Assembly: GCA_963836235.1 (NCBI GenBank)
Contig: CAWIIP010000002.1
Span: 1,888,001 to 1,952,000 of the forward strand
Direction: 5' to 3'
Source: an uncultured Pseudomonadota bacterium
GTDB lineage: Bacteria; Oederibacteriota; Muellerivitia; Muellerivitales; Muellerivitaceae
Length of the DNA: 64,000 nt
This document shows, in pieces, positions 13,231 to 52,253 of the stretch (its first letter is position 1; every line of letters starts with the position of its first letter). Both the position numbers and the translations under genes were made by a program. The notes beneath the pieces were generated by a model that was not told where the DNA came from, did no database searches, and worked only from the letters and a program-made list of their open reading frames with translations.

Positions 13231-13316
13231 TATCTTTTGGTCTACACGCAAAAAAACGAAAAGAGCTTGCGGGGGCGATGGAAGATGCTTCTTTAAGGCC
13301 TTCAATTTAAAATCAT
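13231..13316 (-). repeat. Degenerate copy C of the methyltransferase (23177-23794) 3' end
   Basis: TATCTTTTGGTCTACACGCAAAAAAACGAAAAGAGCTTGCGGGGGCGATGGAAG...AAAATCAT aligns to 23178-23265 with two 1-nt deletions. Confidence 0.85.
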
Positions 13317-13534
13317 GACCAATCTTCAAGGGGAATACCGCTTCCCTCGATAATGCTTTTGAGGGTGCCAAGGGGAAGGTCTCTTCCCTTATGAAATGGA
13401 ACAATAACCTGCTTATCCGTTTGCGGATTGCGCCATTTCTGATGGCTTCCCTTGCTTCCGACAAGCATAAAACCACCTTGTCGGAGAACACGAATAATTT
13501 CGGTTGGCTTGAGACGTGGATATTTGGAACTCAA
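13313..13534 (-). CDS. hicA: HicA-family mRNA interferase toxin
   Basis: 73 aa; VLRQGGF..VGSKGSHQKW...VIVPFH...LPLGTLKSII. Confidence 0.9.
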   Translation of the reverse strand: MSSKYPRLKPTEIIRVLRQGGFMLVGSKGSHQKWRNPQTDKQVIVPFHKGRDLPLGTLKSIIEGSGIPLEDWS

Positions 13535-13536
13535 TG

Positions 13537-13740
13537 TTAAAAGGCGAGCGCTTTGACTTTTGCGTTCTTGGGGAAGTGAATTTTCGGGGAAGGTTCGAGG
13601 TAAAGTTCAATCGCTTCATGAATGTTTTTCATAGCTTCTTTTTCCGTATCCCCGGAACTTGTACAACCGGGAAGCTCGGGACAATAGGCGGCGTAAGATT
13701 TGACTTGCTTGTCATATTCCAAAACAACCCTGATTTTCAT
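13537..13740 (-). CDS. hicB: HicB-family antitoxin (short form, no DNA-binding domain)
   Basis: YAAYCPELPGCTSSGDTEKEAMKNIHEAIELYLE. Confidence 0.9.
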   Translation of the reverse strand: MKIRVVLEYDKQVKSYAAYCPELPGCTSSGDTEKEAMKNIHEAIELYLEPSPKIHFPKNAKVKALAF

Positions 13741-13804
13741 GCGTTCCTCCTCTGACTTCAAAACAAATATAACAAAAGTTCAGTTCGATTCCCAGCGGAT
13801 CGGC

Positions 13805-13915
13805 CTATCTTTTGGTTAACACGCAAAAGAACCAAAAGGGCTGGCGGGGGCCGTGGAAGACGCCTTCTTTGAGGTCTTACAATTCAAAATCCTCTCCGAA
13901 AACCTTCTGAACTTT
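13805..13915 (-). repeat. Copy B of the methyltransferase 3' end (111 bp, about 90% identical, internal stop)
   Basis: Ungapped alignment to 23177-23287; translates as ...DFEL*DLKEGVFHGPRQPFWFFCVLTKR*. Confidence 0.95.
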
Positions 13916-14312
13916 ACGGCAAGGAATGAAATCCCTGTTCCTGGAAATGCTTGTCGAAGGTATGGACATTTTTGACGCCCTTTCGCCGCATCACTTCGAA
14001 ACTGACACAATCCACCAGGCTTAGATTCCTTCGCTTGGCCGTCAACACGGCGGCGAGGCCAGCCTCGTGGGAATTCTCATCCACCCACTCCACCGAGAGA
14101 AGCGGCACCACATCCCGATGGAATTCGGCCACGGCCTCCAAGCCCAAGCGGTTTTGAATCAGGGAGAAGGTCTCCAAGAGCGTGTAATTACTGCAAAGCA
14201 GGGACGCGTCCGATTCGAGCAGGGATTTCCATGCCTCATCCGCCTTGACGTGGAACCGGTCTTCCTTCGTTAAAAGAGCGATAAAGAAGGAGGTGTCAAT
14301 GAAGGTGGTCAC
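13914..14312 (-). CDS. vapC: VapC-type PIN-domain toxin
   Basis: FIDTSFFIAL, E in LLETFS, SLVDCVSF, TFDKHF PIN motifs. Confidence 0.92.
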   Translation of the reverse strand: MTTFIDTSFFIALLTKEDRFHVKADEAWKSLLESDASLLCSNYTLLETFSLIQNRLGLEAVAEFHRDVVPLLSVEWVDENSHEAGLAAVLTAKRRNLSLVDCVSFEVMRRKGVKNVHTFDKHFQEQGFHSLP

Positions 14313-14554
14313 TTGGCGTAATCTTCAGCCAGGTACTTGTCGTGGTTGACGGAAAGATCGGAGTGCTTGGAATGGAATTTCCCCGAAATAGCGATGGCGC
14401 GTTTGCGCCGCTCTTCCGGGCTGATGCTCCCGTTTTTCAGGAACAAATCGATGCCTTGACGGATGGCCTCGGCCATGGAAATGTGGCGTTCCCCGGCGAT
14501 TTTTTTCAGGGAAACGGTTTGCTTCTTGGTCAATTGAATTTGGGTGCGGATCAT
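14309..14554 (-). CDS. vapB: CopG/RHH-type antitoxin (VapB)
   Basis: MIRTQIQLT...ISMAEAIRQGID...DLSVNHDKYL; GTGA overlap with the PIN gene. Confidence 0.85.
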   Translation of the reverse strand: MIRTQIQLTKKQTVSLKKIAGERHISMAEAIRQGIDLFLKNGSISPEERRKRAIAISGKFHSKHSDLSVNHDKYLAEDYAK

Positions 14555-14566
14555 GGCCACTCTCCT

Positions 14567-14600
14567 TAGTGATAACACTTACGTTATTATGATAACACTA
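14567..14600. promoter_or_regulatory. Probable autoregulatory operator of vapBC
   Basis: TGATAACACT twice, directly upstream of the antitoxin RBS. Confidence 0.45.
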
Positions 14601-14683
14601 GAGAAAGTGGGGTCAATAGTTGCGAGGGCCTGAGGTTTTAAATCAAGGATTCGCCGGATGGAAGACCCATTCTTTGATGTCTT

Positions 14684-16423
14684 TCAATCGTTTTCTTGTT
14701 TTTCCATCGCGATTTTTTGATAGATGGGGTATTGGGGTTCCCAGAATTTCTGGAGAATCCGCTGTCTTATTTCATCTTCCTCCATCGCCGGGGCGACGCC
14801 TTCTTTTTGCGCCTGCTTGACCACGGCTAGAGCGATGCGGCGGATGATGTCCTGGATGCCTTCCAGGGGGGGAAGCAGGGAAGCCGAGGGGTCGTGCAGG
14901 GCGGGGGAATAGCCCCCCAGCGCGCGGGCGGCGGCCAGGAGCATACCGTCGGTGATCCTTCGGGCCTCACAGGCGGCCACCACCAGCCCCATGGCGGGGA
15001 AGATGAAAAAATTGTTGCATTGGCCGATATGGACGCGCTTTTCCCCAAGGGCTACCGGCGAGAAGGGGGCGCCGGTGGCGATAAGAGCCCGACCCCCAGT
15101 CCAGTCCATCAGGTGCGAAGGCGTGGCCTCGGCGTGGTCGGTGGGGTTGGAGAGGGGGAAGATGACCGGGCGGTCCACCTTAGCCGCCATCTCCCTCACC
15201 AGCGGTTCGGTGAAGAGCCCGGGCTGCATGGAAACGCCGATCAGGATGGTGGCTGGAATACTCTTTATCGTCTCAAAAAGCCCCACCCGGCCCCGGGAGT
15301 CCTTGGGCCAGCCGGCGATTTTTTCAGTGGGCTGGGCGAATTTCATCTGGATGGGGGACAAGTTTTTAATGTCCTGGTGCAAGAGGCCGTCCACATCCAC
15401 CAGGTAAAAGTGGCCGAGGGCTTCGGCCTCGCTGAGCCCTTCCGCAACCATGGCGGCCAGCAGGTATTCGGCGATGCCCGTGCCCGCACCGCCCGCCCCC
15501 GCCATAACCACCTGCTGGTCGGAAAAGTTTTGGCCGGTCACTTTCAGGGCCCCCAAGATCGCCCCCGTGGAGACCGCCGCCGTGCCCTGGATGTCGTCGT
15601 TGAAGGTGCAGAGGCTGTCCCGGTACTTGTCCAGGATGGGGCGGGCGTGGGGCCTGGCAAAATCCTCCCATTGCAGAAGCACGTGGGGAAGTTTTTTGCG
15701 GACGGCCTGGACGAATTGGTCGATGAAGTCCCAATAGTCCTGGCCGGTCACGCGCTCATGGCGCCAGCCGACGTAAGTGGGGTCGCGCAAGAGACGTTCG
15801 TTGTTGGTGCCCACATCCAGAAAGATGGGCAAGGTGCGGGAAGGCTCGATGCCGCCCAGGAGCGAATAGAGGGAAAGCTTGCCGATGGGGATGCCCATGC
15901 CGCCGGCCCCTTGGTCGCCGATGCCGAGGATTCTCTCGCCGTCGGTGGCCACGATGACATCGACAAAGCGGTAGGGGCGGTTTTCCAAGATTTCCTCCAG
16001 CCGATCCCTTAAGGGGTAAGCCAAAAAGAGGCCCCGGGGCTGGCGGTAGATTTTGGAAAAGTTCATGCAGCCCTGGGCTACCACCGGGTTGTAGATGACC
16101 GGCGTCATTTCGGTAAGGTTGCGGCTGAGCAGGGCGTAGAAGAGGGTCTCGTTGGTATCCTGCAGGGCCCGCAGGAAGGTGTGGCAGTCCAGGTCGGTGT
16201 CCTGGAGCGAATAGGCGTTATAGGCCCGGTCGCACTGCTGTTCAAGGGTTTCCACCACGGGGGGAAGGAGCCCGGAGAGTTTGAACTGCTCCCTTTGCTC
16301 AAGGGTGAAGGCGGTGCCGGCGTTTAGGATGGGGTTGGTAAGGATCTGCTGGCCGGTGAGATGGGTTTTGAAAAGCGTGGAGCCCGGGGGCAGGGGAGCG
16401 CTTGGAGATTCTGGGTCCGACAT
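14684..16423 (-). CDS. maeA: NAD-dependent malic enzyme
   Basis: NAGTAFT, LQDTNETLFY, TDGERILGIGDQG, QWEDF, FNDDIQGTA, GAGGAGTG, IFPLSNPT, GQCNNFFIFP. Confidence 0.93.
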   Translation of the reverse strand: MSDPESPSAPLPPGSTLFKTHLTGQQILTNPILNAGTAFTLEQREQFKLSGLLPPVVETLEQQCDRAYNAYSLQDTDLDCHTFLRALQDTNETLFYALLSRNLTEMTPVIYNPVVAQGCMNFSKIYRQPRGLFLAYPLRDRLEEILENRPYRFVDVIVATDGERILGIGDQGAGGMGIPIGKLSLYSLLGGIEPSRTLPIFLDVGTNNERLLRDPTYVGWRHERVTGQDYWDFIDQFVQAVRKKLPHVLLQWEDFARPHARPILDKYRDSLCTFNDDIQGTAAVSTGAILGALKVTGQNFSDQQVVMAGAGGAGTGIAEYLLAAMVAEGLSEAEALGHFYLVDVDGLLHQDIKNLSPIQMKFAQPTEKIAGWPKDSRGRVGLFETIKSIPATILIGVSMQPGLFTEPLVREMAAKVDRPVIFPLSNPTDHAEATPSHLMDWTGGRALIATGAPFSPVALGEKRVHIGQCNNFFIFPAMGLVVAACEARRITDGMLLAAARALGGYSPALHDPSASLLPPLEGIQDIIRRIALAVVKQAQKEGVAPAMEEDEIRQRILQKFWEPQYPIYQKIAMEKQEND

Positions 16424-16552
16424 AGGGACTCTTTCGCCGATCAAGGGGGAAAATTCACCGATGGTTTATCTTATATCCACGGGCCATCGAAAAATAAAGG
16501 GTTGGGGCACATATTCTACTTTAGCCCATGGCCCCCAATATCTTCGAAGAAG

Positions 16553-16620
16553 CTGTCTTTTGGTCAACAGGCAAAAAAACGAAAAAGGCTGGCGGGGGCC
16601 GTGGAAGGCCCCCTTTTTTC
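16553..16620 (-). repeat. Copy A of the methyltransferase 3' end (about 68 bp)
   Basis: CTTTTGGTCAACAGGCAAAAAAACGAAAAAGGCTGGCGGGGGCCGTGGAAG aligns to 23181-23231. Confidence 0.9.
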
Positions 16621-16653
16621 AATTCTTCTTGGAAATACCTTCAAGGGTTTCCT

Positions 16654-16929
16654 TTATTTCTTTTCAACCAGATCCATTCCGCACTTGGGGCATTTGCCAT
16701 CAGCCGTCCTGGGGCCGCTATAGTCGCCCATGGGACAAACCCAAGTTGCCTGAACCGCCTTCGCGGCAACCGGCTTCTTCTTGGCCTTTTTGACCTTATG
16801 TTTCACCGCCGGCGTTGAAGCGGCTACCGGCGTGGAGAGGCCATCCGCTTTGCCCGCGTCATCCGCCCAAACCGACTGAACCACGACCAACAAAGCCGCA
16901 ACCATCAACAAATCCAAATATTTTTTCAT
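16654..16929 (-). CDS. Small secreted heavy-metal-binding-domain protein
   Basis: Signal peptide; C-terminal WVCPM...GKCPKCGMDLV. Confidence 0.8.
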   Translation of the reverse strand: MKKYLDLLMVAALLVVVQSVWADDAGKADGLSTPVAASTPAVKHKVKKAKKKPVAAKAVQATWVCPMGDYSGPRTADGKCPKCGMDLVEKK

Positions 16930-16992
16930 CACCTTGCTCCTTTTGTTTTTTGCCCAGATTTCCATTTTGGAAAGCAGGGAACAGCTCGTTCT

Positions 16993-19900
16993 TTAACCCA
17001 CCCTTTTAACGACTTTCCAAAACCATCCCCAAAAGCCGGTAAGTTCCTTTTTTACCACTTGGGGCCTGACTTCGGTGTGCCATTTCCAAATGACGAATAG
17101 GACGGGATAGACCAAAAGCTCCAAAAGGAAGGAGGTGAAAATCCCGCCCACCATGGGGGCGGCGATACGCTTCATGACGTCGCTTCCCACGCCGTTGGAA
17201 AAGAGGATGGGAACCAAGCCCATCCAGGCCGCCCCGACCGTCATCAGCTTGGGGCGGACACGATGGACGGCTCCCTCCAAAGCCGCTTCCTTTAAATCCA
17301 GGAGGCTCTTGAGCTTTCCCCGCTCCCGGTATTCCCGGTAGGCGATATTTAAATAAAGCAGCATGACGACCCCGGTTTCGGCGTCCAAGCCCGCCAGGGC
17401 GATCATCCCCACGGCTACCGCCACCGAGAGGTTATACCCCAGCATCCAAAGAAGCCAAAAGGCCCCCACCAGGGAGAAGGGAACGGCCAGGAGCACCATG
17501 GCCGTTTCGGTGAAGGACTTGGTGTTGAAATAAATGAGCAGGAAGACCAGCAGAAGGGTCAGGGGGATCATGATCCTGAGCCTCTTGGCCGCCTGTACCA
17601 TATATTCGTATTGGCCGCTCCATTCCAGGCTCACCCCCGGCGGAAGATTTACTTTTTGTTCCAAAACCCTTTTGGCCTCGGCCACCCAAGTACCGGGGTC
17701 ACGGTTCGCCAAGTCAACGTAGACGTAACCCGCCAGCAAGCCGTTCTCATCGCGGATCATGCCCGGCCCCGTGCTCAAGGAGACGTCGGCCACCTGCCCC
17801 AATTGAATATGCTGGCCCGAGGGGGTCACCATGGGAACACGCCTCATCTTATCCGGCGTGTCGCGGAAATCCCGGCTCAAGCGGACCGTGATGGGAAACC
17901 GGGCCCGTCCCTCGACCGCTTCCGTGACCATGTCCCCCCCGACCGCCGATTGGATGAAGTCGTTCAGGTCGCCCACGCTCATGCCGTAACGGGCCAGCTG
18001 GTCCCGCTTGGCCTGGATATCCACGAAATAGCCGCCGGTCACCCTTTCGGCGAAGGCGCTGCGGGTGCCGGGGATATCGTGGACGGCCTTTTCAATGTCC
18101 TCGCTGGCCTTTTCGATGGCCTCGAAGTTATCCCCCAATACCTTGATGCCGATGGGAGTGCGGATACCGGTGGAGAGCATGTCGATGCGGTTCTTGATGG
18201 GCCCGATCCAGTCGTTGGTAAAGCCCGGCACTTGCAGGGCCTGGTTCATCTGCTGGATGAGCTTTTCATGGGTCATGCCCGCGGGCCACTGGCTTTCGGG
18301 CTTGAAAACGATGGTGGTTTCCACCATCGACAGGGGGGCGGGGTCCAGGGAGGTTTCCGCCCTTCCCGCCTTGCCGAACACGCTCTGAACTTCCGGGAAT
18401 GACTTGAGGACCCGGTCCTGCATCTGAAGAATCCGCCCGGCCTCGGCGATGGAAATGCCCGGCAAGGTGATCGGCATATATAGAAGAGTCTCCTCCCACA
18501 GGGGCGGCATGAACTCCGTGCCCAACCGCGCCATGGGCAGGAAAGTCAAAACCATGACGCCCAAAGCCGAGCCGATCACGGTCAGGCGGTGGTCCAGCAC
18601 CCACCGCGCCATCGGCGCGTAGAGGCCCTGGAGAATCCGGTTCACCGGGTTTTCCTTTTCCGGCCGGATGGTTCCCCGGAGCAAAAGGGTCATCAACATG
18701 GGGGTGAGGGTGACCGCCAGGAAGGCGGAGAAAAACATGGCGAAGGTTTTGGTGAAAGCCAGGGGCTTGAACAAGCGGCCCTCCTGGCCCTGCAGGGCGA
18801 AGACCGGCAGGAAACCCGCCGTGATGACCAGCAAGGTCATGAAGAGGGAAGGCCCCACCTCCGTGCAGGCGCGAAGAATGACGCTAGTGCGGTCTTCCTT
18901 CTTTTTACCTTTTTCCCATTCCTCCAGACGCTTGCAGGCGTTTTCCACCATGATGATGGAAGCGTCCACCATGGCCCCGATGGCGATGGCGATCCCGCCC
19001 AAACTCATGATGTTGGAAGTGACGCCGATATAGCGCATGCAAATGAACGAAATGAGGATGGAAACGGGCAGGGTGACCAGGATGACGAAGGCCGAGGGCA
19101 AGTGCCAAAGGAAGATCAGGCACACGATACTCACCGCGATGGCCAGTTTCGCCAATTCCTCCATGAGGGTGTTCACCGAATCCTGGATTAGTTCGGACCG
19201 GTCGTAGACCGGCACGATTTCCACGCCCGGGGGGAGGGAGGGTTTCAGTTCCTCCAGCTTTTGCTTCACGGTCGCGATGACATTCATCGCGTTTTCGCCG
19301 TAGCGCATGGTCACGGTGCCGCCCACGACCTCGCCTTGGCCGTTCAAATCGGTGACGTTACGCCGCAAGGCGGGCCCCAAGCGGGCCTGGCCCACGTCCT
19401 TGACCAAAACGGGAATGCCCTGCTTGTCGCGCCCCACCACGATACCCTGGAGGTCCTGGAGACGGTGGACATAGCCCAAACCCCGCACCATGTATTCGGT
19501 GCCGTTCAGTTCCAACAGTCTTCCACCCACTTCCTGGTTGGATTCCCGCACCGCCTTGACCACATCCGAAAAGGGTATGTCATAGGCCGCCAGGGCCGCG
19601 GGGTTCACTTCCACCTGATACTCTTTCGTCTCACCGCCGACGGTCGAGACCTCGGCCACGCCGGGAAGGCTTTGGAGGACAAATTTCAGGTTCCAATCCT
19701 GGTAGGCCTTGAGTTGTTCCAGGCTGTTCTGGCCGGTCTTATCGACCAAGGCGTATTGGTAAACCCAGCCCACCCCGGTGGCGTCCGGCCCGATTTCCAC
19801 TTTCGCGCCCTCGGGAAGGCTGCCCTGTATCTTCGAGAGATATTCCAATACCCGGCTTCTCGCCCAATAAACATCCGTGCCCTCGTCAAAAATGACATAG

Positions 19901-20175
19901 ATATACGAAAACCCAAAGTCCGATTGGGCCCGGATGGATTTAACATGCGGGGCCCCCAACAAGGCCCGGGTGATGGGGTAAGCCACCTGATCTTCCAGGA
20001 TGTCGGGACTGCGGTCCCACTGGGCGAAGACCACCACTTGGGTATCCGATAAATCCGGGATAGCGTCCAGGGGGACAGTTTTAACCGCCCAAATTCCCCA
20101 GCCGACGACCAACAACAGCCCCAGGCCGACTACAAACCTGTTTCTTCCGCAAAACCCGATGACTTTAGCAATCAT
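16993..20175 (-). CDS. cusA: CusA/CzcA-family RND heavy-metal efflux permease
   Basis: PLDAIPDLSDTQV, GPDATGVGWVYQYAL, NIMSLGGIAIAIGAMVDA, KNRIDMLSTGIRTP, MKRIAAPMVGG. Confidence 0.95.
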   Translation of the reverse strand: MIAKVIGFCGRNRFVVGLGLLLVVGWGIWAVKTVPLDAIPDLSDTQVVVFAQWDRSPDILEDQVAYPITRALLGAPHVKSIRAQSDFGFSYIYVIFDEGTDVYWARSRVLEYLSKIQGSLPEGAKVEIGPDATGVGWVYQYALVDKTGQNSLEQLKAYQDWNLKFVLQSLPGVAEVSTVGGETKEYQVEVNPAALAAYDIPFSDVVKAVRESNQEVGGRLLELNGTEYMVRGLGYVHRLQDLQGIVVGRDKQGIPVLVKDVGQARLGPALRRNVTDLNGQGEVVGGTVTMRYGENAMNVIATVKQKLEELKPSLPPGVEIVPVYDRSELIQDSVNTLMEELAKLAIAVSIVCLIFLWHLPSAFVILVTLPVSILISFICMRYIGVTSNIMSLGGIAIAIGAMVDASIIMVENACKRLEEWEKGKKKEDRTSVILRACTEVGPSLFMTLLVITAGFLPVFALQGQEGRLFKPLAFTKTFAMFFSAFLAVTLTPMLMTLLLRGTIRPEKENPVNRILQGLYAPMARWVLDHRLTVIGSALGVMVLTFLPMARLGTEFMPPLWEETLLYMPITLPGISIAEAGRILQMQDRVLKSFPEVQSVFGKAGRAETSLDPAPLSMVETTIVFKPESQWPAGMTHEKLIQQMNQALQVPGFTNDWIGPIKNRIDMLSTGIRTPIGIKVLGDNFEAIEKASEDIEKAVHDIPGTRSAFAERVTGGYFVDIQAKRDQLARYGMSVGDLNDFIQSAVGGDMVTEAVEGRARFPITVRLSRDFRDTPDKMRRVPMVTPSGQHIQLGQVADVSLSTGPGMIRDENGLLAGYVYVDLANRDPGTWVAEAKRVLEQKVNLPPGVSLEWSGQYEYMVQAAKRLRIMIPLTLLLVFLLIYFNTKSFTETAMVLLAVPFSLVGAFWLLWMLGYNLSVAVAVGMIALAGLDAETGVVMLLYLNIAYREYRERGKLKSLLDLKEAALEGAVHRVRPKLMTVGAAWMGLVPILFSNGVGSDVMKRIAAPMVGGIFTSFLLELLVYPVLFVIWKWHTEVRPQVVKKELTGFWGWFWKVVKRVG

Positions 20176-20198
20176 TTAAAACCTCCAAAGACTCTCTT

Positions 20199-20310
20199 AA
20201 CCACCAAGGCACCAAGGGCACCAAGAACGACGAAAGGCAAGAAGCTTTAAAACGGCCAAAATTAAATCTTTTGGTTTTTCCTTCTTGGTGCCCTTAGTGT
20301 CTTGGTGGTT
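20199..20310. repeat. Long inverted-repeat element (MITE/REP-like) between cusB and cusA
   Basis: Left arm AACCACCAAGGCACCAAGGGCACCAAGAA vs reverse complement of right arm AACCACCAAGACACTAAGGGCACCAAGAA (27/29). Confidence 0.85.
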
Positions 20311-20316
20311 CAAATT

Positions 20317-21264: not shown

Positions 21265-21283
21265 GATGAATCGGTACATGCCG

Positions 21284-22576: not shown

Positions 22577-22655
22577 CACTCCTTTTGTTTGCGGACGCAA
22601 ATAAGCCACGGATGGATTCTTTTGAACCCATCGACGCAACATCAAAAGGAATGAA

Positions 22656-23006: not shown

Positions 23007-23176
23007 GAATGAATCCTACGCCTTTTACCCCGAAATGGCAAATCGGCTTCTTATTTACCGCCCTCAGCCTAAGGGAAAGGTTGGAAGGCCAATATGATCT
23101 ATATCAAGTTGGGACGGGAGCCCGGCTTCGGATGGTTATTTAACTGCCAGCAGGCCTTTGGAATTCCTAGAAAGAC

Positions 23177-32751: not shown

Positions 32752-32798
32752 ATGGCGCAGTTACATAGACCTATTGGGAGTGCGGCACAGAAAGACGA

Positions 32799-37798: not shown

Positions 37799-37804
37799 AC
37801 TTAA

Positions 37805-43938: not shown

Positions 43939-44151
43939 TTTGAAGCGGGCGGTCATTTTTTTGTCGATGTTTTCCTATCTCAGTGAACCTTCACCCGGAA
44001 AGCCTGGATCATGTTCAGTTAAACGAGCATTTATATTTTTTCCGTTAATTGAAAAAGTTCGGGGCTGAAAGTATTTTATTCCCCGCCTCCGGCTTCCGGG
44101 TTGGGCCGGGCTTCGGGGGAGAGAGATGGAATATCCACAAAGGAAAATGAA

Positions 44152-44782: not shown

Positions 44783-44866
44783 GAAGACCACATGATGGTG
44801 CCGGAACAGTCCACCGGCGCCATCGTCCTCCGCCACCCCGAACGCGGGTATTTCACGGTTCGATAG
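44783..44866 (+). repeat. Diverged copy of the metH 3' end (84 bp)
   Basis: Encodes EDHMMVPEQSTGAIVLRHPERGYFTVR* vs MetH EAHMMVPEQSTSAIVIHHPECEYFAVR* (43855-43938), ungapped. Confidence 0.93.
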
Positions 44867-44910: not shown

Positions 44911-45201
44911 ATGATTCATTCCATCGCGGATAAATTGACGCAGGATGTCTTTGATGGTGTGAACTCGAAGGCGGCCCGGCGTTTTCCCCCGGAACTACAC
45001 CGAAAGGCGAGGCATAAGCTGGATTTGCTGAACGCCGCGGGTAACTTGAACGATTTGCGGGTTCCGCCCGGAAACCAGTTGGAAGCATTGAAGGGCGATT
45101 TGAAGGGTTATTTCAGTATTCGAATCAATGATCAGTGGCGCGTTATTTTCAAGTGGATCGAAAACAATGCCGAAGAAGTGCGAATCGCAGATTATCACTG
45201 A
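44911..45201 (+). CDS. higB: HigB (RelE-superfamily) toxin
   Basis: DLRVPPGNQLEALKGD..GYFSIRINDQWRVIF...IADYH. Confidence 0.93.
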   Translation: MIHSIADKLTQDVFDGVNSKAARRFPPELHRKARHKLDLLNAAGNLNDLRVPPGNQLEALKGDLKGYFSIRINDQWRVIFKWIENNAEEVRIADYH

Positions 45202-45212
45202 GGAGGTGGGAA

Positions 45213-45506
45213 GTGTTACCTAAAAATAGGCCTGCGACACATCCAGGCGAAATCTTAAGCGAGGAATTTCTGGTTCCCATGGGTGTTTCCCAAAACGCCC
45301 TTGCCTCTCATTTGGGCTGGTCCCATGCCAAGGTGAACGAAATTATCCATGGCCGTCGTGGCATCACTCCCGAAGCCGCCTTGTCCTTAGCCGATGTATT
45401 GGGGACCACGCCGGACCTGTGGTTGAATATGCAACAGAATTTTGACCTTTGGAAAGCCCAGCGCATTCACCACAAGAAGAAACCTCTATTGGCGAAAGCA
45501 GGTTAA
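45213..45506 (+). CDS. higA: HigA antitoxin (XRE HTH)
   Basis: THPGEILSEEFL, VNEIIHGRRGITPE.AL.L, WLNMQ. Confidence 0.93.
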   Translation: MLPKNRPATHPGEILSEEFLVPMGVSQNALASHLGWSHAKVNEIIHGRRGITPEAALSLADVLGTTPDLWLNMQQNFDLWKAQRIHHKKKPLLAKAG

Positions 45507-45538
45507 AGAGTCATCGTCGGCAACTCTAAGGTATTCAC

Positions 45539-46351
45539 ATGAAGAAAATCATTTCTTGGGCGCTCTTCTTTTTATCAGGCTCCGCCGGGTTCGCCGCCAC
45601 CGACCAGGCGACGATTGATCTTTTAAACCAGCTCGACGGGCATTATTACTGTTTGACGCGCGAAGGGCTCGCTGATTTTCAATGTGAAGTGAAATGTTCC
45701 CTCCTCGATAAGTACAAAGTCGCCTGTTTGAAGAACTATTCCCCCGACGACAAGCGAACCCAAGCCATCGTTCGAGCGAAACTGATACTGACCTATTCCA
45801 CCGATGGAAAGCTGTCCTTGGACGTCTCCAATTTCGACCCCAACGGCGAGGGGGCTTTCGATGAAAACATCGATAAAATCATGGCCATCGCGAAGGATTC
45901 TTTTAACGAGAGTATTTACCCCTGGCGTTCCAGCGTTTTGGACCCGCCTTTCGGCGGGGACGATTTCGAGAAATTCGACCTGCAAGTGAAGAAAAATGAC
46001 GCGGGTTTTCAGGTCGTTTCCACGGGGGCCCAGCCGGTGACCGAGTATGTGGATAAACAATGGAGGATAACCGAGATTCAGGCGGGCAGTCTCACGGCCA
46101 TTCAGGATTGCAAGTTCCAATATGCCGATACTCCCCAGGGGATGATCTTATCCCAGGTCGATGCCCGCTTGCCCCAAAAGGCCAGCGAGGAAATTGTTCA
46201 GATGGAGTATCAAACGATGGACGGCCTCATGATGCCCACGAAAATGACGGTGCGGGTGGAGAGAACGGAAAAGGTGGACGATACTCCTTTTGAGGTGGTT
46301 TTTGAGTTTAGGAATTATCAAATTGATAAAAGCACGGAAGGAAAGAAGTAA
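45539..46351 (+). CDS. Hypothetical secreted protein
   Basis: Signal peptide; beta-strand-rich C-terminal half. Confidence 0.7.
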   Translation: MKKIISWALFFLSGSAGFAATDQATIDLLNQLDGHYYCLTREGLADFQCEVKCSLLDKYKVACLKNYSPDDKRTQAIVRAKLILTYSTDGKLSLDVSNFDPNGEGAFDENIDKIMAIAKDSFNESIYPWRSSVLDPPFGGDDFEKFDLQVKKNDAGFQVVSTGAQPVTEYVDKQWRITEIQAGSLTAIQDCKFQYADTPQGMILSQVDARLPQKASEEIVQMEYQTMDGLMMPTKMTVRVERTEKVDDTPFEVVFEFRNYQIDKSTEGKK

Positions 46352-46390
46352 TAAACTTTTAAAGATGGCATAGAATTACTTATCAATATT

Positions 46391-46708
46391 ATGATTCGAG
46401 GAGGTTTCACCTTGGCAGAATATGATTCTAAAATAATTCATAAATTTGCGGATAGGCTTTACAGTCAGGCTCAAACGGTCTTATTTACCTACCCACTAAT
46501 TGGTGGCTTATTAGTAGCAGGAATAATTTATGGTTTTGAACTTTACTCCCGCACAACAACCAATCATCACTTGTTTGGTTTTATAGTTGGGGCTCTCATT
46601 GGTTATTTGATTGCCACCGAGAAAGCATTTAAGCTCAAACTAGAAGCTCAAACCGCCTTGTGCCAGGCAAAAATCGAGGAAAATACGAGGAAGCAAGGAG
46701 GCATCTAA
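46391..46708 (+). CDS. Small two-TM membrane protein
   Basis: Two hydrophobic helices followed by KLEAQTALCQAKIEENT; TAATG overlap with the DUF262 gene; start may be TTG 46412. Confidence 0.7.
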   Translation: MIRGGFTLAEYDSKIIHKFADRLYSQAQTVLFTYPLIGGLLVAGIIYGFELYSRTTTNHHLFGFIVGALIGYLIATEKAFKLKLEAQTALCQAKIEENTRKQGGI

Positions 46709-47787
46709 TGAAAAATGATAAAGACGAGGATCTTATTGTTGATGAAGTCGCCGAGGAAACGGAAGCGCCCGTAGTCTATGACATTGCCACCTATCCTTCA
46801 GATTTAACTTTAAGTGTTCTTTATGAAATGTGGAAAAATGGTGATATAAAAATACCCGAATACCAAAGAAATTATGTTTGGAATATTAAACAAGCATCTT
46901 TGTTAATTGAGTCTTTTCTTTTAGGACTTCCAATCCCGCAAGTTTTTTTTCATGTCGATGAAAACAATAAAAATTTAGTAATAGATGGCCAACAAAGATT
47001 ACTAAGCATAATTTATTATTTTAATGGTTATTTTGGTGACGAAGATATTCGCGGTAAAAAACAAACATTTCGTCTTCAAGGGTTAGATGAAAAAAATCCT
47101 TTTTATAACAAAGGATATAACGATTTAGACGAAAGTTTAAAACGGCGATTCAAGAGCTGCATTCTAAGAGTTATAAATATCAGGCAACTACATCCAAAAG
47201 ACGAAAGTACTTCCGTCTATCATATTTTTGAACGACTTAATACTGGAGGCACGCCTCTAAAACCACAGGAAATTCGTAACTGCGTTTTTCTTGGAGGTTT
47301 AGTGAAAATTTTAGGAAGCTTAAATAAAGATCCTAATTGGCGAAAAATTCTAGGAAAGAAAAATTTAGATAAGCACCAGAAGGACGTTGAACTTGTTTTG
47401 AGAGTTTTTGCTCTTAGCGGAAATTGGGAAAAATATCAAAAGCCAATGAAGGAATACCTGAATAATGCGATGAGGAAAGAGCGCGGCGGTGATTCTCAAA
47501 GAGTTCAAAAATTCAAAAACAATTTCAAAAAAATCTCAAAATATATTTATCAGAATTTGGGCGAAAAACCATTTCGTATTCGTGGCCCACTAAATACGGC
47601 CATATTAGACTCGACGTTTTGTGTTCTCATGGAAAATAGTGAAAAATTGCCAAAAGATTTAGATAAAAGGTTTAAAAAACTGTTTAAAAACAAAGAATAT
47701 ATTGATTCCACTTTAAGCGCCACCACGGACGTCTTGGTTTTGAAAAAGAGATTCGAAAAGGCCAAAGAAATTTTAATTAGAAAATAG
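46708..47787 (+). CDS. DUF262 (ParB/Srx-like NTPase, GmrS-like) protein
   Basis: PEYQRNYVW, LIES.LLGLPIP, VIDGQQRL, IFERLNTGG..L..QEIRN. Confidence 0.92.
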   Translation: MKNDKDEDLIVDEVAEETEAPVVYDIATYPSDLTLSVLYEMWKNGDIKIPEYQRNYVWNIKQASLLIESFLLGLPIPQVFFHVDENNKNLVIDGQQRLLSIIYYFNGYFGDEDIRGKKQTFRLQGLDEKNPFYNKGYNDLDESLKRRFKSCILRVINIRQLHPKDESTSVYHIFERLNTGGTPLKPQEIRNCVFLGGLVKILGSLNKDPNWRKILGKKNLDKHQKDVELVLRVFALSGNWEKYQKPMKEYLNNAMRKERGGDSQRVQKFKNNFKKISKYIYQNLGEKPFRIRGPLNTAILDSTFCVLMENSEKLPKDLDKRFKKLFKNKEYIDSTLSATTDVLVLKKRFEKAKEILIRK

Positions 47788-48051
47788 ATATGTATAAAAA
47801 AAACTTTAAAAATGCCGAAAATCTTTTTATCGAACTAGATAAAGTAGTTGCTCAAAATCAAAATCATTATTTCAAATCTAGATTAACAGGATTCATCGCT
47901 GTTAGTGCCGTAACAGTTTATGAATTGGCAATCAAAGAAATATTTATTAATTTTGCTACAAAAAAACACAAAATATTGGGAAATTTTACGAGTGAATTTT
48001 TTGAAAAAATAAATGGAAGAATTAAAAAGGACAATTTAAGAAAAGACTATA

Positions 48052-49103
48052 GCTGAATTCAACCAGTAAGTGCAACACCTAGACGAAAGACCTGCTCCGG
48101 CGTTTTGAAGCGAAGGCACTTGCGTGGACGGCTGTTGAGAGCCCGCTCCACACGTCGCACGTTCGCTGGAGTTATGGTAGCAAAATCGGTTTTCTTTGGA
48201 TAGAAGCGCCGCACCAAACCATTAGTGTTTTCGACGGTTCCCTTTTCCCAACTGTGGAAAGGAAGACAGAAAAAGGAACGGGTTCCTAAGAGATTGTTAA
48301 CTTGAAGATGCTCGATGTTTTCAGAGCCGTTGTCGTAAGTAATGGTCCGGTGTAACCCCTTCGGAAAGAGGGTGAGCCGTCGATTGATAGCTGCTCGTGT
48401 TTTCGAAGCGGACTTTTGAGGCAACCAGGCGAGTTTCACGAGGCGGCTTTTTCGTTCGACCATCACCAAAAGGGAGGCTTTACTTTTTCTGGAGATGATG
48501 GTGTCCGCTTCCCAGTGACCAAATTGACGCCGCGTCTGCACGATGGCGGGTCGTTGAGTGATCGGAGTTCGTTCTGGAATATGGCTTTTTCGATGTTTGT
48601 GCGAATGCCATCGGCGAAGCCGCTTTCGATGGGAACGAGCCAAGAGAGGGATGAGGTTTCGGGCTTCGGAATAAATGAACTGGTAGACGGCCTCGTGGGA
48701 AATGAATAGTTTGGAGTTCTCAAGGCGAAGCTGACCAGCAATTTGTTCGGGAGAAAACCCCTGATGAAGCTTACGCAAAACATGTTGTCGGATCCCTGGT
48801 TTTTTGAGACGCAGATGGGTCCGAGAGAGTTGGTTACGCTGGGTAGATCGCAGGTGAGCCCGAGCTGGTAGATAACGGCCAGGACGTAAAGGTGGTGCGT
48901 TACGCTTCAACTCTCGGGAAACACTGGACACATCACGTTCGAGGCGTCGGGCGATTTCTCGTATGGAGAGGCCTTCTGCCTTCCAAACTGCGATTTCTTC
49001 ACGTTCGGCAAACGACAGGTGCTTGTAGGATTGTTTCATAAAACTTAGGATAACCCCCGGATTCTGCCGGGGCTAAGTGTTGCACTTCGCTATTGAACTG
49101 GGG
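48052..49103 (-). mobile_element. IS30-family element, type A, copy 2 (1052 bp), ATA target duplication
   Basis: Same IRs as copy 1; ATA at 48049-48051 and 49104-49106. Confidence 0.95.
48059..49039 (-). CDS. IS30-family transposase
   Basis: Two residues differ from 11516-12496 (L>F and R>H). Confidence 0.95.
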   Translation of the reverse strand: MKQSYKHLSFAEREEIAVWKAEGLSIREIARRLERDVSSVSRELKRNAPPLRPGRYLPARAHLRSTQRNQLSRTHLRLKKPGIRQHVLRKLHQGFSPEQIAGQLRLENSKLFISHEAVYQFIYSEARNLIPLLARSHRKRLRRWHSHKHRKSHIPERTPITQRPAIVQTRRQFGHWEADTIISRKSKASLLVMVERKSRLVKLAWLPQKSASKTRAAINRRLTLFPKGLHRTITYDNGSENIEHLQVNNLLGTRSFFCLPFHSWEKGTVENTNGLVRRFYPKKTDFATITPANVRRVERALNSRPRKCLRFKTPEQVFRLGVALTG

Positions 49104-49436
49104 ATATAAAAAAATATGGAGAAAAATATTTAAGGAAATTCGATAAAGTTGTTAAAGAAAAAGGCGACAGAATATTTAAAAAACATCACGAAGACATTCT
49201 CAGCTGTTATGAAAATGTCATTACCTGGCGCCATGATTTTATTCACGAAGGTAAAACACCGACAACTGCTACTTATGAAGAGGTGAAAAAGTCTTATTTT
49301 TATGGAAAATTTGTAATTCATTCTTTGGCCAAAGCTATGAAGAAATAAATTAAAATTATTTAGCTAGTCATTAAATTTTCGATCGACATTTCATTTATCA
49401 AAGGCTTATTTCTTTCTTTTCTCCCGAATTAAACCC

Positions 49437-50491
49437 GCCGAATTCACGGAGTAAGTGCAACACTTCGCCGGAAGACTTCCGCCGGAGTTTGAAAGCCCAA
49501 ACATTTTTTGGGCCTGTTATTAAGCCATCTTTCAATGGCTTTGAGCTCTTTGAGAGACACTTTAGCAAGGTCGGTCTTTTTAGGCAAATGGCGGCGGACA
49601 AGACCGATAGTATTTTCCACTGTGCCTTTTTCCCAACTGTGGAAAGGAACGCAGAAAAAGGATTTTGTACCAAGCACATGGTTGGTTTCCAGGTGGTTGG
49701 TGTTTTCGGTTCCGTTGTCGTAGGTCAGGCTCAAACGAGCCTCTTGAGGAAAGCGGCATAAAGAGCGGTTGAGGCTGTGACTCATGTGGGAAGCGGTTTT
49801 TCGTTTCAGCTTTCCCAATTTGGAAAAACGGCTTTGACGCTCGACAAGTGCCCGGAGAGCAACTTTACTTTGACGAGAAACCATCGTGTCCGTTTCCCAG
49901 TGGCCGAACTGCTTGCGTTGGTTGACGACCTTGGGCCTTTTGTCGATGGAAACTCGGCCTGGGATATGGTTTTTGGCGTGCCTGTGGCTGTGACCGAAGG
50001 TGAGCCGCCGCCGGTGGTGACGGACGAGGCAAGGAATCAGATCAGTGGCCTCAGCGTAAATCCACTGGTAGATGGCTTCGGGGCCAATGGTTTGCTTAGG
50101 CCGCAGGTGGCCTAAACGGCCTGAAATGAGTTCGGGAGACCAGCCTCGTTTCAATTGGCGACGGACGTAGGCACGAATTCGTTTTGTTTTCAGGCGTAAA
50201 CGACAAGCCCGTTGTTGGTTGCGGGTCACATACCGTTGATGGGCCCGATGGGACAGATAGTAACCCGAACGGATGGGGGGAGCGTTGCGCTTGAGTTCCC
50301 TGGAGAGGGTGGAAGGAGACCTCTTCAAGGCACGGGAAATGGCCCGAAGGCTGAGGCCCTTTCCCTTCAAGACGGATAAATGATCTCTTTCCTCAACACT
50401 TAAATGCTTGTAGTTCTTTTTCATGGCCGCATATCCTATTGATGCGGCCTTCTTCAGGCACTAAGTGTTGCACTTACTTATGGAACTCGGG
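49437..50491 (-). mobile_element. IS30-family element, type B (1055 bp), CCC target duplication
   Basis: IRs GCCGAATTCACGGAGTAAGTGCAACAC / GTGTTGCACTTACTTATGGAACTCGGG; CCC at 49434-49436 and 50492-50494. Confidence 0.93.
49444..50424 (-). CDS. IS30-family transposase (distinct from type A)
   Basis: GHWETDT, TYDNGTE, SWEKGTVENTIGLVR, LNNRPKKCL. Confidence 0.95.
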   Translation of the reverse strand: MKKNYKHLSVEERDHLSVLKGKGLSLRAISRALKRSPSTLSRELKRNAPPIRSGYYLSHRAHQRYVTRNQQRACRLRLKTKRIRAYVRRQLKRGWSPELISGRLGHLRPKQTIGPEAIYQWIYAEATDLIPCLVRHHRRRLTFGHSHRHAKNHIPGRVSIDKRPKVVNQRKQFGHWETDTMVSRQSKVALRALVERQSRFSKLGKLKRKTASHMSHSLNRSLCRFPQEARLSLTYDNGTENTNHLETNHVLGTKSFFCVPFHSWEKGTVENTIGLVRRHLPKKTDLAKVSLKELKAIERWLNNRPKKCLGFQTPAEVFRRSVALTP

Positions 50492-50494
50492 CCC

Positions 50495-50657
50495 TCTTTT
50501 GCTCCCGCATCCAAACAATTTGCCCCGTGTGGTGGCGGACATGCCAAGCATAGGTACCCAAGGCGCTTGAAAGCTTTGTGGCCTGGTTGTTCCGGGGGTT
50601 GATGTAGGCCCGGGCAAACTCTTCCTCGGTCATGGTCCGCATCAACCGCACCCACTG
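50495..50657 (-). repeat. Diverged copy of the yfiT/DinB gene 3' end (continues at 49429-49436 across the IS)
   Basis: 171 bp, ungapped vs 51738-51908 once the IS is removed; 19 differences by my count, 17 of them synonymous. Confidence 0.95.
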
Positions 50658-50730
50658 CCGACGCGGGTCCTTCAGTGGCTGGGTTGACCAATAACTTGAC
50701 TTATACTTGACTCATAATTAGACTGCTTTT

Positions 50731-51741
50731 ATGGCCTATGAACCGCGTTTTACCATAACTCCCCACCTCCTAAAAACCCTGGAAGATATCGCCGCGTTGC
50801 GGGAGAAAATCCAGGCGGCCACCCTGCAAGTTTCCTGGATTCCGGCCCTTCAAAAGGACACCCGGGCCCGGAATAGCCATAGTTCGACCGCCATCGAGGG
50901 CAACCCCCTCACTCTCGAAGAGGTTCGTCTTTTGGAATCCGGCAAGGAGCTTCCGGCCACGGCCGAACGGTCGAAAAGGGAAATCCTCAATTATTTCGCC
51001 GGGCTGAGGCATATCGAGAAGAACGCGAAGAAAAAAACCATCAGTCACGAAGATTTGTTCACGCTTCACAAGCTTTTGGCCTCCCAAGTGATGGATCAAG
51101 GCGAAGCCGGAAAGTACAGGTCCATTCAGGTGCGGGTGGGGAACCACGTTCCACCTCCCCCCGCGCAGGTGAGCGGGCTCATGAGGGAATTATTGGAGTG
51201 GTGGAACAAGCACTCAAAATCCTGGCCACCGGTTATGACATCGGGGATCATCCATTACCGTTTTGAGGCTATCCATCCCTTCGCGGACGGCAACGGACGC
51301 ATGGGAAGGATGCTGGCCCTTTGGGAACTTTTTCGCAGGGGGTTTGACACCCACCACATTTTCTCGGTGGATGAGGTCTTCTGGGAAAAGAGACCCCTCT
51401 ATTACAGGAACCTGGATTTAGTGCGGACCCAAGGCGAGGATTTGACCGGATGGCTGGAATATACCGCCGAGGCTGTTCAACTCACGCTCGAAAGGGCTTG
51501 GGACAGGGTTCAAGCGCTCAAAGGCATGAAGGGGACCGGCAAGGTAGTCCTTTTGCCCCGGCAAGAAAAGTTCCTTGCCCTTTTGCGGGACCGTGGAAGC
51601 ATGACACCCAGTGAAATATGGAAAGCTTTGGGTGTTTCCCGGCAAGGGGCCATGAATATCCTGAAGCCGCTGTTGGCGGCCGGTTTGATCGAGCGCATCG
51701 GAACCAAGAAGACCGGAAAGTATATTTTAAAAGAAAGCTAA
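50731..51741 (+). CDS. Fic-family protein with C-terminal HTH
   Basis: SSTAIEGN inhibitory motif, HPFADGNGRMGR catalytic motif, C-terminal winged HTH. Confidence 0.93.
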   Translation: MAYEPRFTITPHLLKTLEDIAALREKIQAATLQVSWIPALQKDTRARNSHSSTAIEGNPLTLEEVRLLESGKELPATAERSKREILNYFAGLRHIEKNAKKKTISHEDLFTLHKLLASQVMDQGEAGKYRSIQVRVGNHVPPPPAQVSGLMRELLEWWNKHSKSWPPVMTSGIIHYRFEAIHPFADGNGRMGRMLALWELFRRGFDTHHIFSVDEVFWEKRPLYYRNLDLVRTQGEDLTGWLEYTAEAVQLTLERAWDRVQALKGMKGTGKVVLLPRQEKFLALLRDRGSMTPSEIWKALGVSRQGAMNILKPLLAAGLIERIGTKKTGKYILKES

Positions 51742-52253
51742 ACCTTCTTTTGTTCCCTCATCCAAACAATCTGTCCCGTGTGATGCCGCACATGCCAGGC
51801 GTAGGTGCCTAAGGCGCTTGAAAGCTTTGTAGCCTGATTGTTCCGGGGGTTGATGTAGGCGCGGGCAAACTCTTCTTCCGTCATGGTCCGCATCAACTGC
51901 ACCCACTGCTTGTGAAGGCCCTCCAGTAAGGCCAATGGCCCCTCGATGGGGCCTGTTTTGGATTCCTTCAAATCCACCCATTTGTTCCGGTCATAGGCCT
52001 TGGTGATGGGCTGGTCTTCGGTTAAGGCCAGCTTGAAGTTGATATAGCCGTTCGTGTGGCTGTCCGCCAAGTGGTGGACGATCTGGCAGATGGTCCAATT
52101 CTTATACTTCGTGTCCAGCTGGGCGTCCGATAGGCCCGCCAGGGCATCCCGCAGGGTCTTGGGGGTTTTCTCGATGATGTCGATTAAGTCTTTGAGGGGA
52201 GGGTTTTCCTCTTCTTTAGGGTGAGGACCGACAGGGTAATCTGGGGCTTCCAT
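51738..52253 (-). CDS. YfiT/DinB-family putative metal-dependent hydrolase / thiol transferase
   Basis: DYPVG, WTICQIVHHLADSH, FKLALTED.P, YAWHVRHHTGQI. Confidence 0.9.
   Translation of the reverse strand: MEAPDYPVGPHPKEEENPPLKDLIDIIEKTPKTLRDALAGLSDAQLDTKYKNWTICQIVHHLADSHTNGYINFKLALTEDQPITKAYDRNKWVDLKESKTGPIEGPLALLEGLHKQWVQLMRTMTEEEFARAYINPRNNQATKLSSALGTYAWHVRHHTGQIVWMREQKKV

Follow-up and report, generated by a model that had tools for sequence, protein, structure and literature searches.

Accessory cassettes behind displaced, synonymously diverged gene ends in an uncultured soil bacterium and its family

Introduction

At rhs loci, a new 3' end and its adjoining genes displace the old end, and old tips pile up behind the intact gene; homologous recombination with circular intermediates has been proposed to account for this, with no dedicated recombinase (Jackson et al., 2009, PMC2935791). 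On either side of the e14 prophage lie icd and icdC, a C-terminal pseudogene of that gene (PMC13626634). Here we describe a related layout in a 64,000-nt stretch of DNA (the window; contig C2, positions 1888001 to 1952000) of an uncultured soil bacterium (genome G000; 3.97 Mb, 5 contigs, ~50% G+C), in which four intact genes, those for a TPMT-like methyltransferase and a DinB-family protein ('yfiT') together with recR and metH, are each followed by displaced copies of their own 3' end, with accessory genes between gene and copy at three of the four loci. The same arrangement recurs elsewhere in this genome and in its family, of which G001 is a congener of G000 and the other G-numbers are further members. 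It bears on the open question of how small accessory operons (toxin-antitoxin, defence) move without mobile-element genes; many gene-transfer hot spots hold no integrase.

As at rhs loci, a new 3' end and its adjoining genes appear to have displaced an old one. There, the tip encodes a different toxin domain and one family is diversified, whereas here the end is synonymous, about 19 ordinary genes are involved and the cassette is the payload; a change of C terminus of the rhs type (polymorphic toxin plus immunity) was not encountered among our loci, where differences are mostly synonymous. Similarity to e14 and icd lies in an intact gene that leads into the insert, a C-terminal fragment at the far end, and differences that are largely conservative or synonymous. 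However, the 15-kb e14 prophage encodes its own integrase and excises under SOS induction, whereas the inserts described here measure 0.05 to 6.5 kb, hold no recombinase and have many targets. Phage 21 provides a second attachment case of the icd type.

The Kobayashi group described how restriction-modification genes had entered genomes without a mobile element, leaving long target duplications of variable length, mostly in naturally competent species and with no mechanism established (PMC2853133). Those insertions resemble ours in their addictive modules, direct repeats of >30 bp and single repeat at the empty site, but their repeats are near-identical (44/46, 47/47) and were read as a duplicated target, whereas ours are 66 to 93% identical, synonymously diverged and bounded by stop or start codons. 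Campbell-type insertion-duplication likewise duplicates part of a gene end: in work on E. coli conjugation, the single crossover of circles with a truncated lacZ end left duplications of 109 to 950 bp in 56 of 60 clones (PMC3240628). That case was a laboratory construct with identical homology, whereas the units here are short and 7 to 34% diverged. Integron arrays and the minimal mobile elements of Neisseria hold single-operon cassettes, rich in toxin-antitoxin genes, at a fixed chromosomal place, and the latter are exchanged by homologous recombination in conserved flanking genes; unlike them, the units described here take both arms from one gene and leave a duplication. The literature searches made here found no description of toxin-antitoxin cassettes behind displaced, synonymously diverged gene ends. 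What is new is that gene-end displacement is generalized to ordinary genes as a route of cassette gain; the phenomena are otherwise of known kinds.

Results

Displaced gene ends in the window

Repeats in the window were located by direct-repeat search and self-BLAST. Protein families were assigned with Pfam, defence candidates with PADLOC and RNA families with Rfam; gene calling was crude, by greedy longest open reading frame (ORF). The original prediction, made from the letters of the window, had placed six scars behind four genes, and all six were recovered downstream of their gene, in the same orientation and ending within about 7 nt of the stop codon. Three of them lie behind the methyltransferase gene, the last ~111 nt of which (23177-23286) served as the reference; pN/pS is the ratio of nonsynonymous to synonymous differences per site.

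23177-23794, minus strand: intact TPMT-like methyltransferase gene (Pfam TPMT/Methyltransf_25)
16629-23176, minus strand: cargo 1, Cus-type RND efflux operon (Pfam) between the methyltransferase gene and copy r1
22656-23006, minus strand: 116-aa ORF without assigned function (cargo 1)
21284-22645, minus strand: outer-membrane factor (cargo 1; Pfam)
20317-21333, minus strand: membrane-fusion protein with HMBD (cargo 1; Pfam)
16993-20175, minus strand: AcrB-family pump (cargo 1; Pfam)
16654-16965, minus strand: HMBD protein (cargo 1; Pfam)
16553-16628, minus strand: methyltransferase 3'-end copy r1, 85% identical over 72 nt, pN/pS 0.27, CAG at the stop position
13915-16552, minus strand: cargo 2, between r1 and r2 (Pfam)
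14684-16444, minus strand: malic enzyme gene (cargo 2)
14309-14578, minus strand: VapB-like gene (cargo 2)
13914-14312, minus strand: PIN toxin gene (cargo 2)
13804-13914, minus strand: methyltransferase 3'-end copy r2, 91% identical over 111 nt, TAG at the stop position, pN/pS 0.97
13231-13316, minus strand: methyltransferase 3'-end copy r3, 83% identical over 88 nt, eroded, with two 1-nt deletions

Copy r2 contains one in-frame stop. The lengths of copies of this one target differ (about 72, 111 and 86 to 88 nt), as the original prediction had it. Just past the malic enzyme stop, at 14659-14688, a further 30-nt match (87%) to the methyltransferase end (E = 9e-5, window-sized search) may, by its alignment, be a fourth, tiny remnant.

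The metH and yfiT genes form a second cluster, with one remnant each.

40465-43938, plus strand: intact metH (family orthologues at 80 to 86% nucleotide identity)
44101-44739, plus strand: cargo at metH, a 212-aa protein with no Pfam family, a signal peptide and a cysteine after FVG
44783-44866, plus strand: metH 3'-end remnant, 87% identical over 77 nt, pN/pS 1.07
44911-47787, plus strand: accessory genes of the metH/yfiT hot spot, beyond the metH remnant (Pfam, PADLOC)
44911-45201, plus strand: HigB-like gene
45135-45506, plus strand: HigA-like gene
45539-46351, plus strand: gene for a 270-aa protein without assigned function
46660-47787, plus strand: GmrSD_N-domain defence candidate (PADLOC NsnA, 2e-71; also PD-T4-2_A)
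48042-49103 and 11499-12560: other IS30-family copies, 326-aa transposase with HTH_38 and rve
49427-50491, minus strand: IS30-family element inside the yfiT remnant, transposase at 49444-50424 (Pfam HTH_38 and rve)
50492-50658, minus strand: yfiT 3'-end remnant, main part, 89% identical over 167 nt
50731-51741, plus strand: Fic-domain gene, cargo at yfiT (Pfam), with a C-terminal winged-helix domain
51738-52253, minus strand: intact DinB-family 'yfiT' gene (Pfam DinB_2)

The metH segment 43855-43931 repeats at 44783-44859, and the remnant extends to a TAG at 44866. The 212-aa protein is presumably lipoprotein-like, as that cysteine would suit a lipobox. The yfiT remnant keeps 55 codons without a stop, and its last 8 nt, GGGTTTAA, were found as predicted at 49429-49436, on the far side of the IS30-family copy, which is bordered by a GGG target duplication. 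That copy is 64 to 79% identical to the other two in the window, which are 99 to 100% identical to each other and have at least 14 near-identical copies elsewhere in the genome. IS30 was considered and rejected as the cause of the scars, its copies being later insertions with 3-bp duplications. The stop codon of fic overlaps that of yfiT by 4 nt. The predicted list of cargo stood with regard to the Cus operon, the malic enzyme with VapB/PIN, the lipoprotein-like ORF and Fic; the pair given there as hicBA is HigB/HigA-like and lies beyond the metH remnant. The window was also said to lack tyrosine and serine recombinases, which is correct, though three IS30-family DDE transposase genes are present.

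The recR locus holds a short spacer in place of genes.

32799-33401, minus strand: intact recR (Pfam RecR domains)
32752-32798, minus strand: recR spacer, 47 nt, weak hairpin, homologous to spacers in five other family genomes
32707-32751, minus strand: repeat of the final 45 nt of recR; encodes ETTLLKALEGRGKI, then a stop

This copy starts 47 nt past the recR stop, has its own stop, and agrees with the working end at 35/45 nt and 12/14 residues (7 synonymous and 2 nonsynonymous codon differences). A REP-like (repetitive extragenic palindromic) or other multi-copy element behind recR was considered and rejected, the spacer being unique in G000.

Insertions relative to the congener

In G001 the methyltransferase gene is followed, no more than 100 nt away, by orthologues of the genes from window position 3782 down to 1, and the Cus operon is not downstream of it. 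Because the G001 gene joins these orthologues directly, the segment of the window from ~3800 to 23176 is extra in G000. The G001 malic enzyme gene lies upstream of the methyltransferase gene, between a 267-aa gene and an AKR gene (locus L025, 7014-8813), so that in G000 a housekeeping-type gene has moved into a cassette array.

A comparable case lies outside the window. Desaturase and rluD-like genes are convergent in G001, with stops 47 nt apart, and 6 kb apart in G000, where the interval contains a MazEF pair, the desaturase remnant, a 304-aa gene, a multi-copy IS-like (insertion sequence-like) element and the second rluD remnant (r2), followed by a HicB-like gene, the first rluD remnant and a PIN pair. 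The rluD remnants begin at -135 and -123, and the outer remnants of this interval adjoin sequence resembling the native intergenic hairpin of G001. At the empty sites of G001, the methyltransferase, desaturase and rluD-like genes each have the repeat once only. Relative to the congener, what lies between gene and copy is inserted DNA, and eroded full-length paralogues are ruled out by these empty sites.

Genome-wide count of displaced gene ends

Each of 2698 called genes of G000 supplied 180-nt probes that were compared by Smith-Waterman alignment with the 6 kb flanking the gene on either side (score >= 40; matches within a different gene on the same strand were discarded as paralogues). Probes from 3' ends gave 23 orphan hits downstream and 5 upstream (roughly 5e-4, one-sided binomial, calculated by hand), those from 5' ends gave 14 upstream and 14 downstream, and mid-gene probes gave 5 downstream and 4 upstream. 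Eighteen of the 23 downstream 3'-end hits finish within 7 nt of the stop codon. The downstream excess of gene-end copies is not due to chance, and the predicted preponderance of 3' ends was borne out across the genome, together with four mirror-image events at 5' ends.

The scan misses the methyltransferase copies, which lie beyond the 6-kb limit, and recR (score 35, below the threshold). Adding the three methyltransferase copies, rluD r2 and recR to 17 scan events, we count 22 remnants at 19 genes. Three weak events with scores of 43 to 51, near the level of control probes, were kept (C2:857640, C5:148128, C2:1728492), C1:261017 is doubtful (pN/pS 0.47, indels), and C2:1205629 was excluded, its homology running 37/40 nt beyond the stop and its cargo holding an IS66 transposase. 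Homology ceases at the stop codon in 21 of the 22 gene-remnant pairs.

In the mirror-image events, a copy of the first 88 to 200 nt of a gene lies upstream of it, beginning at -16 to 0 of the start, with cargo between copy and gene, and homology ceases at the start codon. Their coordinates in G000 are as follows.

C2:1399764-1403887 (locus L001)
C2:1529558-1533727
C4:279733-282517
C4:819598-821700

Synonymous and nonsynonymous codon differences number 18:7, 10:3, 2:3 and 21:4, and the cargo includes an AcrB-family pump in one event and a pair of 94 and 96 aa in another. Thus, 3' ends dominate, but because these four events exist the process is not exclusive to them. A limit of homology at the stop or start codon is expected if donor and recipient share the coding sequence only.

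Synonymous divergence between gene and remnant

Compared codon by codon, 13 gene-remnant pairs gave a pooled pN/pS of 0.21, with synonymous divergence (pS) of up to 0.3 to 0.5 among pairs and repeats 66 to 93% identical across remnants. Synonymous to nonsynonymous differences were 16:2 for yfiT, 10:1 for an S9 peptidase, 13:2 for the desaturase, 7:0 for C2:764867 and 5:1 for rluD r2. The bias that had been noticed in yfiT and recR (7:2) holds, but it does not extend to methyltransferase r2 and the metH remnant, which are older or eroding, given their pN/pS near 1. Synonymous bias implies that each copy has a history as a functional gene end in a lineage of its own; a copy made in place would drift at all codon positions, and the bias thus argues for a foreign origin. 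One copy of each pair is, judged by its codons, a functional allele from another lineage. A diversity-generating retroelement, whose template repeat would copy a gene end, was rejected as the source, the targets being housekeeping genes, the differences synonymous, and no reverse transcriptase having been seen in the cargo.

Recurrence across the family

Among 31 family genomes, 29 have metH, and 8 of these 29 (G000, G004, G005, G008, G021, G032, G034 and G037) carry one to three remnants of its end, all within ~6 kb downstream. The cargo at metH comprises VapBC-like pairs, PF00144-fold, FRG-domain and WG-repeat proteins, a HigA-like pair and unassigned ORFs; in G034 a DDE transposase is found past the final remnant. 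Six metH remnants whose cargo differs start between -91 and -76, a span of 15 nt; the three that share a VapBC-like cargo start at -105 to -110, and others at ~-140 and -48. A nearest-allele comparison of the metH remnants gave no clear donor. Fragments of yfiT also occur in G034, with lone pieces in G002, G038 and G023, and displaced tips form arrays: three copies at the methyltransferase, two at rluD, three at metH in G034, and up to three copies in total at recR. With the same scars at metH, recR, guaA and yfiT, the acquisition route is lineage-wide, as the original prediction had supposed from the window.

In other genera, metH and yfiT are adjacent and convergent. The G008 locus reads yfiT, new cargo, yfiT fragment and fic, which implies that fic and its adjoining yfiT end stay joined and are themselves displaced in turn. 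In five genomes the homology of the fic unit is confined to the stretch between operator-like TTGAC repeats, ~55 nt upstream of the start codon, and the stop, and its context differs in each. Short-read contigs from two runs (X1 and X2), 100% identical to the window, span the junction of the fic and yfiT ends; no contig of these runs spans the junction from the remnant to the fic promoter by >= 31 nt, and runs X3 and X5 yielded short, unlike pieces only. A fic homologue in G001 (locus L065, contig C8, 5410-8125) lies between 263-nt direct repeats (83% identical) that span the 5' end of the next gene, with an integrase homologue adjoining; from its sequence, this locus may be an island edge at which a 5' end was displaced.

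Units at recR and guaA

Of 12 genomes studied closely, seven have the final 45 nt of recR repeated once or twice behind the gene (window 32707-32798 and loci L104, L105, L106, L111 and L113), and the boundary (-45) is identical in all 10 extra copies. The spacers are 45 to 50 nt long, not in multiples of three, form hairpins and are homologous between genera; no Rfam family matched the recR spacer. Compared with the working end of the same genome, the extra copies of six genomes show 49 synonymous and 3 nonsynonymous codon changes. Extra copies agree with the end of their own genome at 30 to 37 of 45 nt, whereas matches to the working ends of other genera reach 43/45 (second copy of G005 with the first of G009; second of G009 with the first of G032) and 41/45 (second of G032 with the first of G009; second of G012 with the first of G026). 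The order of allele types is permuted between genomes.

The same design is found at guaA in four genera (G000, G005, G009 and G028; loci L005 and L115-L117), with a boundary at ~-40: behind a conserved hairpin spacer of ~70 nt stands a repeat of the final ~40 nt, in which ITSKPPGTIEWE is retained. Read from the alignment, this copy has 6 synonymous changes in G009 and 9 in G028, and no nonsynonymous ones. At recR and guaA alike, synonymous differences affect almost all codons of the untranslated copies, and the encoded protein sequence is preserved.

Cargo, recombinases and junctions

Cargo ranges from 0.05 to 6.5 kb and is compact, running from promoter to stop without leftover element DNA. 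Eight of 20 cargo-bearing events contain genes of the toxin-antitoxin type (MazEF twice, PIN/VapBC three times, a HicB-like gene, an AbiEii-like nucleotidyltransferase pair and Fic); other cargo comprises the RND efflux operon, an acyltransferase, a radical-SAM protein, a 1120-aa cyclase-NTPase-TPR protein and unassigned ORFs. Of 10 cargo proteins left unexplained, 8 had no PADLOC match. The MazEF unit found at the S9 peptidase locus is also present in G005, at 76% identity, in another context and without repeats.

No tyrosine or serine recombinase was found among 33 scanned cargo ORFs of G000 (the 8 ORFs of the C4:288229 cargo were left out) or among 10 scanned in relatives. All tyrosine (8) and serine (2) recombinase genes of G000 lie outside the window, and six of the eight tyrosine integrases are paralogous, at 57 to 70% identity.

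C2:508543-509658: paralogous tyrosine integrase
C5:272301-273410: paralogous tyrosine integrase
C4:244739-245848: paralogous tyrosine integrase
C2:1373842-1374942: paralogous tyrosine integrase
C2:1185612-1186715: paralogous tyrosine integrase
C4:195984-197144: paralogous tyrosine integrase

Five of the paralogues are preceded by an ORF of 84 to 91 aa, and five are followed by repeats of 44 to 70 bp, 95 to 98% identical, with partners 8.7 to 114 kb away; tRNA genes lie at four of these and at the far repeat of a fifth. By sequence, the six look like ordinary tRNA-integrating islands of 9 to 114 kb. No 7- to 9-mer was present in more than 3 of 22 cargo junctions, which thus share no motif. No attC-like motif (by comparison of k-mers) and no integron integrase was seen at the junctions; hairpins ahead of remnants would be expected from cassette terminators in any case.

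Other features of the window and family

Rfam families within the window are limited to four tRNAs and the signal recognition particle RNA. Three tandem 53-nt units (77 to 85% identical) lie at 52845-53003, upstream of an ORF at 53250-53873. Short REP-like palindromes (30 to 150 nt) occur on both strands in many contigs of several family genomes, for example in locus L002 at 2112-2293, 7933-7987 and 10519-10676.

Discussion

We give about an even chance to the explanation that homologous recombination, without a dedicated recombinase, spreads cassettes that have homology to one gene on either side. The unit would consist of the terminal 30 to 170 nt of a conserved gene together with an accessory cassette, set inside the end of the same gene; since the unit restores the gene end, the gene would remain whole and a second copy of the end would be left behind the cassette. 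With the gene body and the short end copy as its two flanking homology arms, such a unit could enter any relative that possesses the gene by ordinary homologous recombination, whatever sits downstream, either as a looped-out insertion between the two arms or by single crossover of a circle with one repeat. A family of units would be founded by one rare illegitimate join that fixes the boundary, to be inherited afterwards, and repeated entries and unequal crossovers would build and permute arrays. We propose that toxin-antitoxin and Fic cargo is enriched because addictive cargo resists loss, and that the short, diverged repeats survive because the cassette is seldom recombined out. A homology cycle of this kind would explain the inherited boundaries, arrays, permuted orders, synonymous divergence and lack of enzymes, although the route of recombination, the direction of transfer and the role of selection in it are inferred. 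In the original prediction, DNA from a relative recombined into a conserved gene, supplied a new 3' end with its downstream genes, and rejoined inside the old gene. Inserted DNA, a foreign copy and recombinase-free cargo were all found; the rejoining was not sustained, since DNA is duplicated rather than deleted, which better fits single-crossover insertion or transfer of a ready-made structure.

Several results weigh against a spread by homologous recombination or give it no clear support. The longest identical run between gene end and remnant is 10 to 48 nt, and no more than 28 nt in 11 of 13 pairs, which is short for RecA-type crossovers. The breakpoint inside the intact gene that had been anticipated did not appear: a test on segments fixed in advance gave no shift for metH or the desaturase and an opposite shift for rluD. 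There is a hint at recR alone, where the duplicated segment, fixed beforehand, gave p = 0.024 in a site-pattern test; with G005 as the outgroup, positions 400-760 split 61 (G000 like G001) to 20 (G000 like G005) and positions 761-1002 split 22:27, with p = 0.0007 for a division chosen after looking and with seven outgroups tried. The empty sites that had been expected in relatives do exist in G001, but relatives mostly side with the intact copy and not the remnant (desaturase 8:4; rluD 7:1 and 4:1; metH 6:3; methyltransferase r1 6:1 and r3 8:4), agreement being even or reversed for methyltransferase r2 (3:6), recR (5:4) and yfiT (8:9). No donor, circle or polymorphic filled and empty site was observed. 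ComEC and DprA are present in G000, but also in 10 and 11 of 14 control genomes, and like the absence of Ku from G000 they say little. Boundaries are less free than the original prediction would have it: they are fixed at -45 for recR and ~-40 for guaA across genera and fall within 15 nt for six metH remnants, although they vary at the methyltransferase gene, at rluD and among other metH remnants, and the fixed ones also fit a site-specific crossover. Finally, conservation between genera extends to the recR and guaA spacers, and the protein sequence is preserved almost perfectly in the untranslated extra copies, which requires either very recent or very frequent turnover or some further function; this near-perfect conservation is the least explained fact.

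The main rival, possible in our view though doubtful, invokes integrative elements of the e14/phage 21 type, with an attachment site that imitates a gene end, for which a tyrosine or serine recombinase makes a site-specific crossover inside the gene; the recombinase would have been lost, or would act in trans as on cis-mobilisable elements left by accretion. A gene, its cargo and its displaced end, arranged at times in tandem, make up the classical signature of such elements, and the boundary shared by 10 recR copies of 7 genomes, by guaA copies of 4 genera and, nearly so, by six metH remnants with different cargo favours them, as do the permuted recR orders, which resemble cassette shuffling, and the G001 fic cassette with its adjoining integrase homologue. 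However, the scanned cargo held no recombinase in G000 or in relatives, about 19 targets would need many specificities, and the six paralogous integrases lie elsewhere, five of them with their own repeats near tRNA genes. Boundaries also vary for a single target (methyltransferase ~-72, -111 and -86; rluD -135 and -123; metH -48 to -140), no junction motif is shared, the limits follow the coding sequence at both gene ends, and alleles circulate between genera; the cassettes are compact, and at metH, where every remnant in the 8 of 29 genomes lies within ~6 kb, no island-sized elements were seen. Homology-facilitated illegitimate recombination, in which one end of a linear DNA pairs by homology, the other joins inside the old gene at 3 to 10 bp of microhomology and each scar arises independently, would account for boundaries that differ between independent cargoes, for the lack of a recombinase, and for the hint of a foreign tract upstream of the duplicated 45 nt of recR. 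We consider it unlikely: its usual product is a deletion in the recipient of about the size of the insert, not a duplication (PMC3240628), the boundary and spacer shared across genera at recR and guaA imply inheritance or spread of one structure, and no foreign-tract shift was detected at metH or the desaturase, that at rluD being in the opposite direction.

Very little probability attaches to an insertion that copied 30 to 170 nt of target in place on entry and then drifted. It would be in keeping with cargo of <20 kb, repeats of >30 bp, no mobility genes and a single copy at the empty site, as set out by Furuta et al. (PMC2853133), and with cargo as addictive as restriction-modification genes, but copies made in place would drift at all positions, whereas the differences are mostly synonymous with pS of up to 0.5, and extra recR copies match the working ends of other genera. 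An assembly artefact, with strain variants of one gene end stitched in tandem, is a concern in that G000 and most relatives look metagenome-assembled (one relative is so labelled); it is barely credible when the architecture recurs in numerous independent assemblies of several genera, copies are separated by whole functional operons, an IS30 with its target duplication sits inside one remnant, and short-read contigs of two runs span the junction of fic and the yfiT end at 100%. Somewhere between these and the integrative elements stands a tentative, rather improbable reading in which gene-end copies are the working attachment sites of an integron-like cassette system seated on the ends of housekeeping genes. 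It would be run by an unrecognized trans-acting enzyme or a special mode of homologous recombination, and the hairpin and recoded end at recR and guaA would represent it without cargo, in a minimal form that several genera retain and exchange, and whose untranslated copies preserve the protein sequence although synonymous change is close to saturation.

In summary, some 20 examples in one genome, and many more in its family, share one architecture. If cassettes flanked by homology to one gene do spread by homologous recombination, these loci would represent a general, recombinase-free route for the spread of selfish cassettes, and a displaced gene end with synonymous divergence would be a simple sequence signature of such events. 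Should a dedicated enzyme be found instead, it would define a new kind of cassette system. If the recombination route is correct, the displaced ends would also constitute a natural record of the lineages with which these bacteria exchange DNA.

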